A stretch of 63,844 nucleotides of DNA, counting the filler, from Squatina squatina (taxonomy: Eukaryota): NCBI GenBank assembly GCA_031763465.1. It is 4 parts of 4 records of this genome, joined end to end, with 100 filler letters (N's around TTAATTAATTAA, not from the genome) between each part and the next. Parts side by side here need not be neighbours in the genome. Positions count along the whole stretch, not along the records: positions 34,584 to 51,272 come from JARFOE010000058.1; 3 more parts are not named here. The stretch is one strand, 5' to 3'. This document shows, one piece after another, positions 36,813 to 60,569 of this stretch. Position 1 is the first letter of the stretch, and every line of letters begins with the position of its first letter. Below the pieces are notes generated by a model. That model was not told the DNA's origin. It was given only the letters and a program-made list of their open reading frames with translations, and ran no database searches. The position numbers and the translations under genes were made by a program.

Positions 36813-38710
36813 GTAATATGATTTTTTTTAATGTTATTTAACTATGGAATGTTGAAGGGGCCCAGAGGAAAGAAGATAAATTATTGTGAGATGGAAAGGG
36901 AATTGAAAATTCTATTTGAGTTTTAGTAAAACTGATTAAGATGGTATGGAGCAGAAATTAATGCAAATGTGATTTTTAAAATTTGATAATATAGAGGATT
37001 CTGTGACCTTGAGTTTCTCACCTCTCCCTTCAGCTCTGACAGCATGAGTCTAGCCTATTGACGATAATCCCACAGAGACACAGTTGGATCCCCCTAACAA
37101 GGCAGAGCTTGGTTAATAATGGATATGCATTCTGTGAAGAAGTAGTTCTAGGCTTTCATTATGTGTAATGGTTCTGTTATATTTTAACTATTATAAACAC
37201 AGGATCCATGAATAGGTAGATTGATTTACCCCACGCTATCCTATAAATTCACTGCTGTGCAGCTCGTAACACAGAACCCAAAACTGTTCAAAAATATTGA
37301 ATAGTAAGTGTTCCAGCTTCATTAATCAATACAATGTAGATTATACATGGCTGTTTAACTTCCCAATAATTACAGCTGGAGTGTTTCTCCTGAGACGCCA
37401 TCCTTACTGTCAATTCACGTTATATTCTAGAGAACTTGGGGCAGATCTTTCTGGTGAGTTACGCTGGTGAACTGGTACAACCTGGATGGGCAATGGAGGA
37501 AAATTGGGCAGAAGCTGTTTTTGCTAGCTCCTGGTTACCCAATGCTACCTCCGAGATTTCCCACTGGAAATGATGCTGNNNNNNNNNNCAAAAATGGGCA
37601 GGTGTATTGTAATAAGCAACAATTTGCAGACAACATCATATGATATATTTCCCATCAGCTGCATCGTAGAAACAATAGGTGCAAGGAACTCCACCGCGTT
37701 CCGGGTGTCCACTGTTGTTATAAGTGGCAAGGGAGGGATGGAGGCTTAAAATGGAAATAGCCCCTCTGCTTAATGTATTTAATCACATTAATAAAAGTGC
37801 CAAATTCAAATTTCAAGATTTAANNNNNNNNNNNNNNNNNNNNNNNNNNNNNNNNNNNNNNNNNNNNNNNNNNNNNNNNNNNNNNNNNNNNNNNNNNNNN
37901 NNNNNNNNNNNNNNNNNNNNNNNTGTGGAAATATATTACTGTCAGGTTGGGGCTGCCATGGAGACGAGCTCAGATAACTGATTGCTGCCATCTGCAGGGT
38001 GGCTGATAAGTGAATTAAACATTGCTCTAGATTAGCACAGGAACCAAAAAGAGTTTAAAGCTGATAGGATTTACTTTAGAAAGATTGCTCCTTCAGTAAG
38101 TGCAGGGTCTCCAGCCGGGAACTTAATGACTGAGTTTGGGGCCAAACTCTGTGAGGAGAATAATTACCACAGAGAAAGTTAAGTACCTTCCTGTAACACT
38201 GAACTGTTTTCTGCCATTTCGGTTCTATGCCCTTAATCCTCCAAAAGATTTAAAGCTGCAGTGGCCCCCTTATTTGTTGCTTACTTTTTTCCCCTCAACC
38301 ATAAAATGGTCACTGAAAGCAAACATCTTGCTTGCTTTCCTTTTTTTCTGGCAATTTTCTCTTATCCTCATCCTCTTGGTACTTTGCACATGTGGCTATT
38401 ATTCATATTATTATTCTTTTTTTCTACAACCAACTGCCTTCTTAAACACCCCCACTTGTCCGCCACAATCTTTTCACAGTGTTTGAGATCATTGACTAAG
38501 CTATCCTTCTGCAATGCCCCATCTCTGTTGTCCAGCTCCATGTGCCCTTTTTGGTTCCGCTTCTACTTATCTGAATCTAGCCAGACCATCTTCNNNNNNN
38601 NNNNNNNNNNNNNNNNNNNNNNNNNNNNNNNNNNNNNNNNNNNNNNNNNNNNNNNNNNNNNNNNNNNNNNNNNNNNNNNNNNNNNNNNNNNNNACAACAA
38701 CATTTTTTAG

Positions 38711-39312
38711 CATTTGAAGATAGAATGGCCAAGTTATTCCGTGAGATTAACTTGGGTGAACTGTCAAAATTGAAACAACATTTACAAAATAAAGGGACAT
38801 TAATGACATTTAATAGAGTTTCAGTGAGGTAGAGCACAAAGGGGAATCATTTTCTTTTTGCTGTGGAAGGATCCATTTCAACTGCAAGGTAATATAGATG
38901 GAAACAGGAATGTGACCAAAACCATTCAGACAATCCTAGTAGGATAAAAGAGGGGAAAAGCTTATCAAAAGTCTTTGATTTCAGCAAAGTTGTTAAATTA
39001 ATTAGCAGAGCAAGTAAACAGAGGAACTTTTCTGATGTCTATTCACATTTTGAGGAGACCACTCAGACTACACGCAGCTGTCATGAGAATGATCTTCAGA
39101 CAATTCCTATTATTCCGGAGACTGGAAATGGAAAATGTACCTTCCTGTCGCAGTCTTCCCTCGCCTCAGACTCTGGAATGTGTAACCCTGTCAGTCAATG
39201 CAGCTCATCGGAAAGCAGGTATTCACACAAAGTAACAAGGGCTGAAATTTCAGCGAAGAGCTGCAACTCTGAACTACTTGGCTCCTTCACTCCTGTTTCC
39301 TTCACTTGTGAT
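38711..39312 (+). pseudogene. Putative divergent or decayed large N-terminal exon of ARHGEF9 (SPATA13/ARHGEF4-long-like)
   Basis: About 200 codons in one frame with only two stops (38830, 38890); DFSKVVKLIS resembles recalled SPATA13 DFDRVFKLVS. Confidence 0.4.
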
Positions 39313-39478
39313 NNNNNNNNNNNNNNNNNNNNNNNNNNNNNNNNNNNNNNNNNNNNNNNNNNNNNNNNNNNNNNNNNNNNNNNNNNNNNNNNNNNNNNNN
39401 NNNNNNNNNNNNTGACAAAGGTTTTTGTTGGCCATTGTATGACATATTGTATTACATTATGGTACTTTACCTTTGCAG

Positions 39479-39609
39479 CTGACACCACAGTTGGAACTGA
39501 GATGTCAAGAATCCACGAAAGCAATGGGAGTAATAAAGACTATGTTGGTTTCTGTCATGGCACTGTCAGGCCTCTGAAGCATGGTGCAGAGCAACTGCTG
39601 GTGAATAAG
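39479..39609 (+). CDS. ARHGEF9: ARHGEF9 upstream exon homologous to the Asef/Asef2 APC-binding-region exon
   Basis: ctttgcag| acceptor, AAG|gtaagg donor, phase-0 end fits the SH3 exon; DTTVGTEMSRIHESNGSNKDYVGFCHGTVRPLKHGAEQLLVNK. Confidence 0.72.
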
Positions 39610-42014: not shown

Positions 42015-42843
42015 TCCCTCACTGGGGATCTCAGTCCCTCACTGGCGATCTCAGTCCTTCACTGGGGATCTTGGTCCCTCTCTGGGGATCTTGGTCCCTC
42101 ACTGGCGATCTCAGTCCTTCACTGGGGATCTTGGTCCCTCACTGGGGATCTCAGTCCTTCACTGGGGATCTTGGTCCCTCACTGGGGATCTCAGTCCCTC
42201 ACTGGCGATCTCAGTCCTTCACTGGGGATCTTGGTCCCTCTCTGGGGATCTGTCTCTCTCACTGGGGATCTTGGTCCCTCACTGGGGATCTCAGTCCTTC
42301 ACTGGGGATCTCAGTCCTTCACTGGGGATCTTGATCCCTCTCTGGGGATCTGGCTCTCTCACTGTGGATCTCAGTCCTTCACTGGGGATCTTGGTCCCTC
42401 ACTGGGGATCTCAGACCCTCACTGGTGATCTCAGTCCTTCACTGGGGATCTTGGTACCTCTCTGGGGATCTGGCTCTCTCACTGGGGATCTTGGTCCCTC
42501 TCTGGCGATCTCAGTCCTTCACTGGGGATCTTGGTCCCTCTCTGGCGATCTCAGTCCTTCACTGGGGATCTCAGTCCTTCACTGGGGATCTTGGTCCCTC
42601 TCTGGGGATCTGGCTCACTCACTGGGGATCTCAGTCCTTCACTGGGGATCTTGGTCCCTCTCTGGGGATCTTGGTCTCTCACTGGGGATCTCAGTCCCTC
42701 ACTGGTGATCTTGGTCCCTCTCTGGGGGTCTTGGTCTCTCACTGGGGATCTCAGTCCCTCACTGGGGATCTTGGTCCCTCACTGGGGATCTCAGTCCCTC
42801 ACTGGGGATCTCAGTCCCTCTCTGGGGATCTCAGTCCCTCACC
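42015..42843. repeat. Minisatellite, 20-bp unit actggggatc(tcag/ttgg)tccctc
   Basis: About 41 copies; explains the repetitive ORFs. Confidence 0.96.
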
Positions 42844-43560: not shown

Positions 43561-43760
43561 CCTCACACTGTGAGATACTGCTCACGGGGCTGTTATTCAG
43601 AAACTGGCACTCTCTCTTTCTTATCTACATACAGTGTGACGTGTAATTTCTGCCGAATGGGTTTTTGCAAGGAATTTAGTGCAAGTGAAGCACTTGAGAC
43701 TGATGCTGCAATCAGCTGGAATGGAATGAATTAGAAGGGGAAGAAGAAATCTCATCTGGT

Positions 43761-43955
43761 ATGGTGGATCTGCTGGACAATTTTAGTTCAGAGCACAGGT
43801 TGACATCACAGAGCCTGCCAGATCCGCATCTTGAGTACTACAGTCTCCTGCATTGCACCATGACCTTGGATATACAGACCATTGTTGTATTTGCCATTAT
43901 CGTAGTGTTGGTGCTGGTGAATGTAATTTTAATGTTCCTGCTCGGCACACGTTAA
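43761..43955 (+). CDS. uORF-encoded single-pass membrane microprotein (64 aa) in ARHGEF9 5' leader
   Basis: Strong Kozak ggtATGG; TM IVVFAIIVVLVLVNVILMFLL; stop 74 nt before the ARHGEF9 ATG. Confidence 0.8.
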   Translation: MVDLLDNFSSEHRLTSQSLPDPHLEYYSLLHCTMTLDIQTIVVFAIIVVLVLVNVILMFLLGTR

Positions 43956-44029
43956 TGGATGACTCTTGAGCTATTGGGTGACACAGCGCTTCAGAGGGAC
44001 AGCTACAGTATGGCCCTGCAGTGATATGA

Positions 44030-44038
44030 ATGACGTTG
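44030..44038 (+). CDS. ARHGEF9: ARHGEF9 first coding segment (MTL)
   Basis: ATG ACG TTG|gtatat; splicing to 49309 gives [19 protein letters not shown] vs recalled human [19 protein letters not shown]; in-frame TGA immediately upstream. Confidence 0.85.
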
Positions 44039-44236
44039 GTATATTATCTACCTAATCTTTTGTCGTGTCTTGTCTTTAATATGCCTGTAAGTCTAGTTAT
44101 TTGTTGGCTAGATCTTGTGTAATTTTTTGAAAGAGAATAGAAAAGCTCTTTTGTGGCATTTTTCTAGCAATAGAAGCTGTGCTCTGTAGAAATTTCTAGC
44201 AAGCAATTATTGATGCTTTGTGTATTACTGAAGGCT

Positions 44237-49308: not shown

Positions 49309-49478
<170 letters not shown>

Positions 49479-50554: not shown

Positions 50555-50746
50555 CTTTGGGTGAACCAGGAAGACACTGTAGATGAAGCCAGTAGTGAGA
50601 TTCAAAATGGGCATCTGGACCCAAACTCCGACTGCCTGTGCCTCGGCAGAAGTATCCAGAACAGAGACCAGATGAGGGCAAATGTCATCAATGAAATTAT
50701 GAGCACAGAACGACACTACATTAAACATCTGAAGGACATCTGTGAG
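50555..50746 (+). CDS. ARHGEF9: ARHGEF9 exon (SH3-DH linker, start of DH domain)
   Basis: ggcag|CTT ... GAG|gtaata; 192 nt; LWVNQED...[30 protein letters not shown]. Confidence 0.96.
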
Positions 50747-56111: not shown

Positions 56112-56582
56112 TCTGAGGTTACATCTCCAGCATTCATATGGCCCCTGCAAAATTGCTAACTCTGCCCAGTTATATTATTAACTTCTTTATGTTTCTTGAG
56201 CCATCTCTAATGAACTAATTCAGTCCGTAAAGATATTTCAAGCTGGTGAATAAACAGGAGGATATCAAGCCCCAAATGGCAACATCTGAGTTTGCTATTT
56301 CAGAAATCGTCAACATACCGGGCAATTACAGCACTGTAAGAGCCATCATTTACACACTGTAATCACACTATTAAATAACTTTTGCCCCCTTACTACGGAT
56401 CCACCAACTTCTCACAGAACCTTAGTAAACATGCACCTCCAAAGCTTAGGGAATAGAGGCTTAAGGGCCATAAAATTGAGTCACCATTATGACAAAATAG
56501 AAAAAGTACAAAATAAAAAAGCTTTTATGCACTATAAAATATAACCCAGTGGTACAATAATAATAATATATAAAACACTAAC

Positions 56583-56795
56583 CAGCTCTATGTGTGTTAG
56601 CTGCTGAGCTAAAGTGTATGGATCACTGCAAATGGTCACTACGTCTCTCTGAATGGATTGTGGTTTGGTCTTTAGCACAGTCAATCGGTCTGTGACAGAT
56701 GCATTTAACTTTGTGAGAACTTCTTCGTACTGGTTAAGGGTAGCAAGCTTCCGGATCAAATTCTGAGTCAACTGGTGCATGGTTTTCCGATGTGA
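56583..56795 (-). CDS. RASGEF1B: RASGEF1B exon
   Basis: gccag|TCA...CTG|gttagt; SHRKTMHQLTQNLIRKLATL...KTKPQSIQRDVVTICSDPYTLAQQLTHIEL; 213 nt. Confidence 0.95.
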
Positions 56796-57409
56796 CTGGC
56801 ACAGAAAGAAAAAAACACATGTTAGTAAAAATAAGCATCCAGATAAATCTAATCTGGTATGTCATTGATTCATGTAAACAAAATATTTCCTTCATCGTTT
56901 ATAACTGAAAGACATCATCAGATTAATGCACAGAACTCCTGATGGCTGTTCAATGGCCTTTACTGGAAAATGGATAGGCTTGAGCTCAAAGGTTTTCTGC
57001 CCCCCACCATCCTACTCACATTTGAAAAGCTTGCCAATGGTCATCATATATGTCTACTTATAAGAATGGCTTATTGATACAGAAAGGCTACCTGGATCCA
57101 TGAACCCGTACCATAACATGAGTCACTACCTATCAGATAGGAGAGTGTTAAAAGGGGAGAAACTTGGCTGAAACATTTTTAAGGTCAAAAGAAGAACTGA
57201 GTTCAATGCCACAGACAAGTAGTTACCACAATCCTCTGCAGAGTCGTTCAGAAACACAGAACCTCTTATGAAGTTATACTGGAGAGCCAGTGTATAACAG
57301 GGATTAATATTTCAATCCGCATGGCAAATTGAATGGAGCTGCCACAGTTCTACTGCAACAGGGTAACTCTGCAGTGATACATGAATGCGATTTTTAAAAA
57401 ATACATAAG

Positions 57410-58480: not shown

Positions 58481-60008
58481 NNNNNNNNNNNNNNNNNNNN
58501 NNNNNNNNNNNNNNNNNNNNNNNNNNNNNNNNNNNNNNNNNNNNNNNNNNNNNNNNNNNNNNNNNNNNNNNNNNNNNNNNTCAAGGGGAGAAGGTTATAC
58601 TTTCTCTTGTTGGAGATACTCATTGACTGACACTTGTGTAGTGCTAATGTTACTTGCGCACCACCGAGTCACCTCTAGAACCTCTGATTTAATGTTAACA
58701 ACATAAACCATAAGGCCAAATAAAAGACTTTAGTGTGCAGTGAATCAAATCAACAACAAAAATCTGAAACGATAAGGCTCTTAAATTGTAGTAGTTCTTT
58801 ACAGTTTCTCGGTAGCTGTTTCTCATCTCTTTCCTCATTATGTCGACCCTTATACTATATAATACTACAGTGTAACATTATATAATGTTATGATTTCTGA
58901 AAAATTAATTTTTCATGGTTTGTTGTTGAACAATGCAGTTAAAGGCGTCCTCTAAGATTAATAACAGCAAAATCTGAATCGCAAATTTAACACAGAAATT
59001 TGCATTTGCAAAGCTGGCATTAAACATTTATGCTTACCATGTATTAATAATACAGACATGCTGATTCACAGCCTTCACTCTGTGCTGGTGACCATTTTGG
59101 TCTCTGCAGGACACCAAGAGCAAAACACTAGATAACTCTCCAATTACCTTTTGCTGATTGTAAATATGGAGAGGGAGAAAAAGGGAAGTTTTGACAGAAC
59201 GCGAAGCTCTCCTGCCTCTCTGCAGTTTCCACTAGATTTTTTAATCACCTTATTTTCTCCTCGCTCCTCGTAAATTTTTCCCAGTATAGCTCTCAGGCAC
59301 CCCAAGTGCATGAAAAACATTCTGAGTAATAATGCTCAGAAAACAAAACTGCTTCTTGTCTCCAAATAAAATGTCTGCACAGCTGACCAGAAATATCAAA
59401 CAACAGGTAGAAAAGTCTAATAATTACCCTGAAGCAAAATTTATAATTTTCCCATCACAATAAGCCTTTCTGCTTTGCAGGAAAGTTTAACAATGTACAT
59501 TGTTGGATTCCGGCTGAGCTGGTGACTGAGGAATTTTACTTTTTCTATCCATGTGTACTTTAAGCTACAATATGTAAGTGTGTTTTACACCAAGGCCTGG
59601 CCTTGGAATCAGAACATTTTTGGGGGGACAAAAAAGGATTTAAGATTAAAAATAAATATGGTACCATAGAACATAGAACATACAGCACATAACANNNNNN
59701 NNNNNNNNNNNNNNNNNNNNNNNNNNNNNNNNNNNNNNNNNNNNNNNNNNNNNNNNNNNNNNNNNNNNNNNNNNNNNNNNNNNNNNNNNNNNNNAAAACC
59801 AGTCTCCATCACAAAAGGAGTTGCCTGCCATTTTTTCTACTGCAGCGAGCAAGGAGTGCAAAATATTCTGGACATATCTTCTGCTTTGTTCAGTGCTAGG
59901 GGCCAAATCACTTATGCGCCATTGTGTCACGGTGAAGATATAAACATATTCTTTATGTAAAACAATTCTGCTATGGAATATATACAGACACAGTTGAATT
60001 ATACATAC

Positions 60009-60185
60009 ATCAGGATAGTAGTCCACTGTAGGCACAAGGTGCTGGATCAGTGCCTCCAGAGACCCCGACACAAGGTTGTTGTCATGGTAAAATAGACCTC
60101 CACAATTCTCCTCTCTGGATGAGTACAGATGTCGGCTGTAACCACTGCTATTAAACATTGCTGCAAAGGTTGGTGTTTGCGGCAT
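60009..60185 (-). CDS. RASGEF1B: RASGEF1B first coding exon
   Basis: aacag|GAAAGC-ATG (exon begins 60191), GAT|gtatgt; MPQTPTFAAMFNSSGYSRHLY...SGSLEALIQHLVPTVDYYPD is closer to recalled 1B than 1A or 1C. Confidence 0.93.
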
Positions 60186-60569
60186 GCTTTCCTGTTTTAA
60201 AAAAAAAAGAGATAATGCTTATTACTAGTCGATAAAATCAGTGCAACACAAGGTTATATTGTTTGTTGTGATGTTGCAATCAGTCTGGACTTCCTGTGAA
60301 AATGAAGCCTGGTTCACAGTTCCAGGCAGTTAACATCATGGCCAGGATTTTCCTCCACAGTCTCGCTTACTGCTGCCTCCCTTCTCTGAACTGGATTTAC
60401 TTCCTGTGCCCTTGTCAGGACCACCACTGGTTGCACCTTTCCCGACCACCACGTGTAAACTGGAAGGGGAGAGAGGGGGAGGACTTGGTCCCAAGCCAAT
60501 TTTCCTCATGTTACCACCACGTTACCACCACGTCCTTGGGCTGCAATAGAGAGGGAGGCAATAGGCCCA

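Follow-up and report, generated by a model that had tools for sequence, protein, structure and literature searches.

Judged by its sequence and by orthologous gene models, the exon at positions 39479-39609 of a 63,844-nucleotide stretch (filler included; hereafter the window) of the Squatina squatina assembly GCA_031763465.1 is a real coding exon of ARHGEF9, the last of a long (~700 aa), SPATA13-like N-terminus. It would close the N-terminus of a collybistin of ~1,200 residues, and the motif that it places before the SH3 domain is, at a probability that we put at roughly 0.55, not a strong APC switch and rather an element for docking or for the tuning of autoinhibition. Collybistin (ARHGEF9), an organiser of inhibitory synapses, has been studied as a short SH3-DH-PH protein in rodents and humans. 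A search of titles and abstracts, in which subscription journals are thinly covered, found no paper on a collybistin that is long or bears the Asef proteins' APC-binding region (ABR). Since the exon is already present in automatic gene models of dozens of species, some of them misnamed SPATA13, what is new here is its interpretation and range, not its sequence. Non-mammalian model organisms may express a long collybistin isoform that has so far gone unassayed.

The exon and its surroundings

The exon is flanked by an acceptor, ...TTTACCTTTGCAG, and a donor, GTAAGG, and only a single frame is open, giving 43 codons that finish with GAEQLLVNK; the exon closes with PLKHGAEQLLVNK. The SH3 exon starts behind a polypyrimidine tract and AG, and its first residues are LISGG. 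The original prediction of an exon of this length with good splice sites and a phase-0 end is confirmed by the sequence, and the predicted join of GAEQLLVNK to LISGG is the one in the ortholog models. Features of the locus are collected in Table 1.

Table 1. Features of the ARHGEF9 locus in the window
Feature	Coordinates	Strand	Details
Part of the large coding exon that lies upstream in the long ARHGEF9 N-terminus	38902..39312	+	77% to residues 287-423 of P0001 (tblastn, E 8e-60)
100-N scaffold gap	39313..39412	.	takes the place of ~238 codons from the long N-terminus, among them the exon of its most conserved block (SQSTPxGLD)
Last exon of the long N-terminus, likely homologue of the SPATA13/Asef ABR exon	39479..39609	+	131 nt; phase 1 start, phase 0 end
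Short-form leader exon	43635..44086	+	acceptor 43635, ATG 44030, donors after 44038 (MTL) and 44086
Upstream ORF, 64 codons, C-terminal half hydrophobic	43761..43955	+	position fits the SPICA microprotein, as far as the available part of its description goes (bioRxiv 10.1101/325571)
SH3 exon of ARHGEF9	49309..49478	+	3' end inside a gap; 56 aa 100% identical to P0001
Following ARHGEF9 exon, with the linker and the beginning of the DH domain	50555..50746	+	97% to P0001 residues 764-828; splice sites read

The long N-terminus is represented in the window by the upstream exon piece and the exon itself, the SQSTP exon having been lost to the gap that cuts the upstream piece on its 3' side; residues 424-661 of P0001 accordingly gave no tblastn match in the window. 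On its 5' side, the ortholog match begins abruptly at 38902, and the preceding 208 bases (38694-38901), which matched no ortholog in any frame, may reflect a chimeric contig or an insertion. The remainder of ARHGEF9 beyond 50746 lies outside the window. The intron following the exon holds a minisatellite of ~41 copies of a 20-nt unit (42015-42842).

The assembly is fragmented, with 52 runs of N in the window, six of which separate the exon from the SH3 exon, and linkage therefore needed a separate test. Pieces of unrelated genes, PAX3/7-like, KCNE-family and RASGEF1-like, are found at 418-795 (+), 8075-8494 (+), 56532-56861 (-) and 59646-60218 (-). The KCNE-family ORF has a Pfam match (ISK_Channel), whilst the others are what we take to be a PAX3/7-like C-terminal exon and RASGEF1-like exons. 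The scaffold has the look of many short contigs patched together, so that neighbourhood within it does not amount to synteny.

Assignment to ARHGEF9

A search with the 43-residue exon peptide returned three proteins among five candidates, and both of the long ones are ARHGEF9 models, from basking shark (P0001, 81% identity, E 8e-14) and skate (P0003, 77%). In these two proteins, and in the members of their clusters, LISGG follows directly after the same peptide; because orthologous proteins match and share this order, the exon is more than a chance open frame. When the long orthologs were aligned back to the window, they fell into four pieces in the expected order, namely the upstream piece, the exon, the SH3 exon and the exon starting at 50555.

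The catalytic part also points to ARHGEF9. The best PDB matches of the SH3 exon are collybistin chains (108 bits vs 86 bits for ARHGEF4), and in a further comparison ARHGEF4 scored 664 bits against 947. In an SH3-DH-PH tree of 27 selected rows, with no ARHGEF4 row among them, all 23 ARHGEF9-type rows, together with the MTL form, formed one clade apart from the four SPATA13 rows (100/100), and the identity of the catalytic part was 82-100% within ARHGEF9 and 58-62% to the SPATA13 rows. Several long forms in the ARHGEF9 clade (P0004, P0011, P0012, P0015, P0016, P0104 and P0113) are nevertheless named 'spermatogenesis-associated protein 13' or '-like' in RefSeq; the tree rules out taking this name literally.

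Mis-scaffolding had been named beforehand as one of the findings that would overturn the prediction. The possibility that the exon was misplaced from SPATA13 or ARHGEF4, or that it is a dead relic, would be in keeping with the many N-runs and the pieces of unrelated genes side by side in the window. It is nonetheless very improbable, as the best matches are ARHGEF9 models with an identical exon order, a transcript-like contig spans three of the gaps from the exon to the MTL leader exon (see below) and the tree argues against a paralogous origin. Decay is opposed by the six listed differences to a relative, which leave the frame intact and three of the five affected codons unchanged. The link to ARHGEF9 is thus taken to be real.

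Homology with the ABR exon

The original prediction rested in part on an alignment to a SPATA13 sequence. This similarity was significant for two of five SPATA13-type proteins: against elephant-shrew P0031 the exon scored 68, or 41 without its last 13 residues, and against gar SPATA13 (P0032) 62, or 38, with none of 3,000 shuffles scoring as high in any of these comparisons. For the three teleost SPATA13s the alignment did not hold, none being in register with the window exon. The matches claimed toward the N-terminus of the exon (GTE, NGS..D and C) were seen in cartilaginous fishes only, and it is the cartilaginous-fish version of the exon that most resembles SPATA13.

In the alignment with human Asef chains, GGEQLAINE|LISDG lies over GAEQLLVNK|LISGG, and the exon agrees with the Asef ABR in both position and phase. 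Beyond the exon, a 152-residue catshark fragment compared with 1.84 billion representatives gave 29 matches (E up to 0.001), mostly of the SPATA13 type, which have in common a proline-rich block and an SQSTPxGLD block. A profile of 13 long ARHGEF9 N-termini likewise matched all six SPATA13-type N-termini, with E values between 2e-42 and 2e-19 when a nominal database of 1,000 sequences is assumed. The exon thus has the ABR type of encoding, that is, a place right before SH3, a phase-0 join and sequence homology. The profile, shuffle and Asef-chain comparisons together lead us to regard it and the ABR exon of SPATA13/ARHGEF4 as likely derived from one ancestral exon.

Neither the exon peptide by itself nor the profile of the N-terminus found an ABR match in the PDB, Pfam holds no family for the long N-terminus or the ABR-like exon, and the marsupial region returned no usable match from the ESM Atlas. 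The SQSTPxGLD block, which lies one exon upstream, shows stronger conservation between ARHGEF9 and SPATA13 than the ABR motif does, and it had no match in Pfam or the PDB. In bony vertebrates it is preceded by an R-x-x-S-x-P stretch, which resembles what we take to be the pattern of a 14-3-3 site. An AlphaFold model of stingray P0009 from a 60-row alignment (mean pLDDT 46.6, pTM 0.31, residues 1-191 below 50) was too poor for use.

Range of the long N-terminus

The original prediction was too narrow in scope, as the exon is neither a shark peculiarity nor a small addition to the N-terminus. It closes an N-terminus of ~700 aa in the gene models of most jawed-vertebrate lineages. A profile built from the last 87 N-terminus residues of seven sequences, with 8,000 candidates scored, retrieved 93 proteins. 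By source name, the fishes among them comprise sharks, rays, gar, eels, tarpon, bony-tongues, herrings, characins and lungfish, and the tetrapods caecilians, salamanders, frogs including Xenopus, turtles, squamates, birds, platypus and two marsupials; a novelty specific to sharks is thereby ruled out. No placental mammal is named among the 93 matches, four of which carry no species name. Since absence from such a set is weak evidence, we infer, and do not assert, that placental mammals lost the long form. That sharks, Xenopus, galliform birds and marsupials all have a conserved long collybistin means that the short form is probably derived.

The join of the exon to SH3 is present in RefSeq models of sharks, rays, gar, some teleosts, lungfish, amphibians, reptiles, birds, platypus and a marsupial, and in frame in at least eight cartilaginous-fish species. 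Three Logan contigs (3,902-4,315 nt) each carry one whole long ORF of 1,268-1,368 residues. This length leaves no room for introns, and therefore points to spliced transcripts with the exon-SH3 junction in lizard-, bird- and frog-like samples.

Two kinds of unusual model were also encountered. In turtle and galliform models P0076, P0111 and P0117 the ABR-like exon is spliced past SH3 straight to LWVNQ, and these SH3-less long forms are predicted to escape SH3 autoinhibition. In electric-ray model P0017 an N-terminus of family PF09422, which we take to be that of AMER1/WTX, is joined to two ARHGEF9 exons, the SQSTP and the ABR-like one, possibly by read-through from a neighbouring gene whose product is itself a ligand of the APC armadillo domain (APC-ARM).

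The motif and the APC-binding consensus

Ligands of APC-ARM share the consensus XGGG[DE]XΦΦ, in which the fourth residue adopts backbone angles accessible to glycine only; in the A1 site of Amer1, G329A (position 4) attenuated and T326R (position 1) eliminated binding (PMC4860839). Glu183 and Ala186 of Asef are named as critical, and optimised Asef peptides keep Gly182 and accept Tyr at 186, a large residue at position 8 (PMC8100458).

The window reads KHGAEQLL at positions 1-8 of this consensus. Long forms were counted from 89 proteins (seven long forms and P0071-P0152), from which two with a 19-residue insert and two without SH3 had been left out beforehand; ten in which SH3 does not come next were dropped, three of them skipping SH3 and seven ending earlier. 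Each of the 79 remaining rows stands for a cluster, birds and turtles are heavily represented among them, and the counts are not those of independent events. Position 1 is basic in 67 of them and Lys in the window. Positions 2-3 are His-Gly in the window and Pro-Gly in SPATA13-type proteins, so that position 2 of the consensus is evidently not strict, while position 3 is Gly in 70/79. At position 4, Ala (46) and Ser (28) prevail over Gly, which is found in two squamates only (2/79); the window has Ala and thus lacks the consensus glycine. Acidic residues (Asp/Glu) occupy position 5 in 65/79, with Glu in the window, and position 7 is hydrophobic in all but one (78/79), with Leu in the window. 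Position 8, the equivalent of Asef 186, is hydrophobic in 30/79 and never Ala; here too the window has Leu. The glutamate of the motif has also been lost in frogs and characiform fishes, and galeomorph sharks have EQVPVSK at the motif.

Outside the core, the acidic run of SPATA13 is gone from the long ARHGEF9 exon: over its last 40 residues the net charge runs from 0 to +9 in long ARHGEF9 (+1 in the window) vs -9 to -13 in five of five SPATA13-type proteins. The window, skate and turtles have exactly the same GAEQLLVNK, while the remaining exon cannot be aligned between them, and this identity against a diverged background argues that the motif is under selection.

On the strength of these sequence comparisons, the changes to the ABR-like motif likely weaken or abolish APC binding, and we therefore read it as a re-purposed element that docks a partner or tunes autoinhibition. 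The original prediction, that this shark may keep an APC-responsive collybistin isoform, stands as regards the homology of its ABR exon, whilst responsiveness is made doubtful by Ala at the fourth glycine and Lys at position 1.

A rather doubtful alternative is that the motif, assisted by the neighbouring SH3 surface, has kept its binding to the armadillo groove of APC or APC2 and opens the long collybistin in the manner of Asef. The shared position and phase of the Asef ABR, the presence of Glu5 and two hydrophobic residues in the window, the SPATA13-like character of the cartilaginous-fish exon and the two squamates with Gly4 are all in its favour. It must, however, accommodate the lack of Gly4 in 77/79 long forms, the frequent basic residue at position 1, the complete lack of the Asef Ala186 equivalent (0/79), the lost acidic run and the divergent motif of galeomorph sharks. 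Uncoupling from APC faces difficulties of its own. The retained Gly3, Glu5 and Leu7 are APC contacts in Asef, and without some similar ligand their retention is difficult to account for. Gly2 is missing from SPATA13 too, and Gly4 from three teleost SPATA13s. Sam68 binds without Gly4. Furthermore, G329A attenuated binding without eliminating it, both mutants come from Amer1 and not Asef, and a large residue at position 8 was tolerated in optimised Asef peptides (PMC4860839, PMC8100458). Docking or tuning remains the preferred reading, and the motif offers a natural test of the APC consensus, with contact residues kept and the Gly-to-Ala change that weakened Amer1 binding (PMC4860839) matched at this position in almost all long forms, by Ala or Ser.

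The teleost SPATA13s P0034, P0039 and P0049 have themselves lost the GGEQLA core (AEHSAL, TELSKL and VELSAL, respectively), and APC control of Asef2 may therefore not be universal.

Splicing and the short-form leader exon

Coexistence of the exon with the MTL form, as predicted, is upheld by the MTL start within the window. The two donors of the leader exon give either the MTL start or one of 19 residues, both of which are annotated in stingray (P0014, P0007). The upstream ORF in this exon, which had no Pfam match, is likely the SPICA ortholog, by its position and a presumed identity in sequence.

No run among those listed is on record as RNA, which says nothing about expression. Four runs were compared with the locus, of which two contributed nothing. 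A 317-nt contig from a probable RNA run of a relative starts at the first base of the exon, covers it and leaves at 39609, and its loose end matches the window from 43635 onwards, behind a polypyrimidine tract and AG, at 29 of 30 letters. Both splice sites of the exon therefore seem to be in use, and the contig reaches across three scaffold gaps. This contig, the only one to cover the exon, records the splice 39609>43635 and not 39609>49309; it comes from one of two runs guessed to be RNA, of unknown tissue, and contigs drop rare branches.

It is conceivable, though unlikely, that in this shark lineage the exon serves mostly as an upstream exon of MTL-leader transcripts, with the long GEF a minor product and the transcripts destined for a truncated N-terminal protein, for nonsense-mediated decay, or for use as a long leader to the uORF and short collybistin. 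The junction in the sole covering contig, several database models that consist of the N-terminus only (e.g. from coelacanth and a marsupial) and the missing 5' continuation of the large upstream exon piece all accord with it. That contig is nonetheless a single one of uncertain source, the upstream break may be a fault of a patchwork assembly, RefSeq joins exon and SH3 in frame in cartilaginous fishes, and both the phase-0 end and the motif are conserved across jawed vertebrates.

A model for the long form

Under the docking or tuning reading, the common ancestor of ARHGEF4, SPATA13 and ARHGEF9 would already have possessed this long N-terminus, ABR included. On the branch leading to ARHGEF9, Gly4 would have given way to Ala or Ser and position 1 become basic before sharks and bony vertebrates separated, the long form being lost later in placental mammals. 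Two classes of product most likely arise: short MTL forms from the leader exon, and a long form with the conserved motif set against SH3. Splicing of the exon to SH3 would give the long GEF, whereas splicing to 43635 would stop the long frame after three codons (C-D-V) and leave the uORF and MTL form downstream. As in the short forms, SH3 presumably still closes over DH-PH, and the N-terminus, being long and probably disordered, may shift localisation and the threshold for opening.

More tentatively, an overlooked collybistin of 1,200 residues in non-placental jawed vertebrates might be coupled through its motif to APC/APC2 or another armadillo-type partner, with the choice of splicing to SH3 or to the SPICA/MTL exon as the switch. 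If this were true, fish, frog and chick would have a regulatory input to signalling at inhibitory synapses or through Cdc42 that placental mammals have lost.

Comparison with known systems

The closest counterparts are the long ARHGEF9 models of RefSeq, such as XP_078403564.1 (Cetorhinus, 1217 aa), XP_078268659.1 (Rhinoraja), XP_067404384.1 (Emydura) and XP_043913659.1 (Protopterus), which are alike in the exon, the LISGG junction and the upstream exon, making the window a further ortholog. These models are automatic predictions, several of which bear the name 'spermatogenesis-associated protein 13' despite an ARHGEF9 catalytic part.

Mammalian collybistin occurs as CB1-3, with or without SH3, and the variation described in the available portions of two accounts concerns SH3 and the C-terminus only (PMC5673238, PMC12032442). 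These forms share with the window the SH3-DH-PH core and the MTL start (44030); neither a long N-terminus nor an ABR-like exon is described for them in those portions.

SPATA13/Asef2 (SP-1277, SP-652; PMC7233598) likewise has a long disordered N-terminus with proline-rich and SQSTPxGLD blocks, an ABR exon and SH3-DH-PH, its long isoform being similar in total length to long ARHGEF9. Exchange activity is lower for long than for short SPATA13 (PMC7233598), which suggests, by analogy only, that the long collybistin N-terminus may damp activity in a similar way. The two differ in that the SPATA13 ABR is acidic with a GGEQLA core in mammal and gar, whereas the long ARHGEF9 exon is neutral to basic with GAEQLL. 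In the ABR-SH3 of ARHGEF4/Asef1 on APC-ARM (PDB 3NMZ), the motif lies in register before SH3 and the window keeps the equivalents of Glu183 and Leu185; Gly182 is however replaced by Ala, Ala186 by Leu and the glycine run by K-H-G (PMC8100458, PMC4860839).
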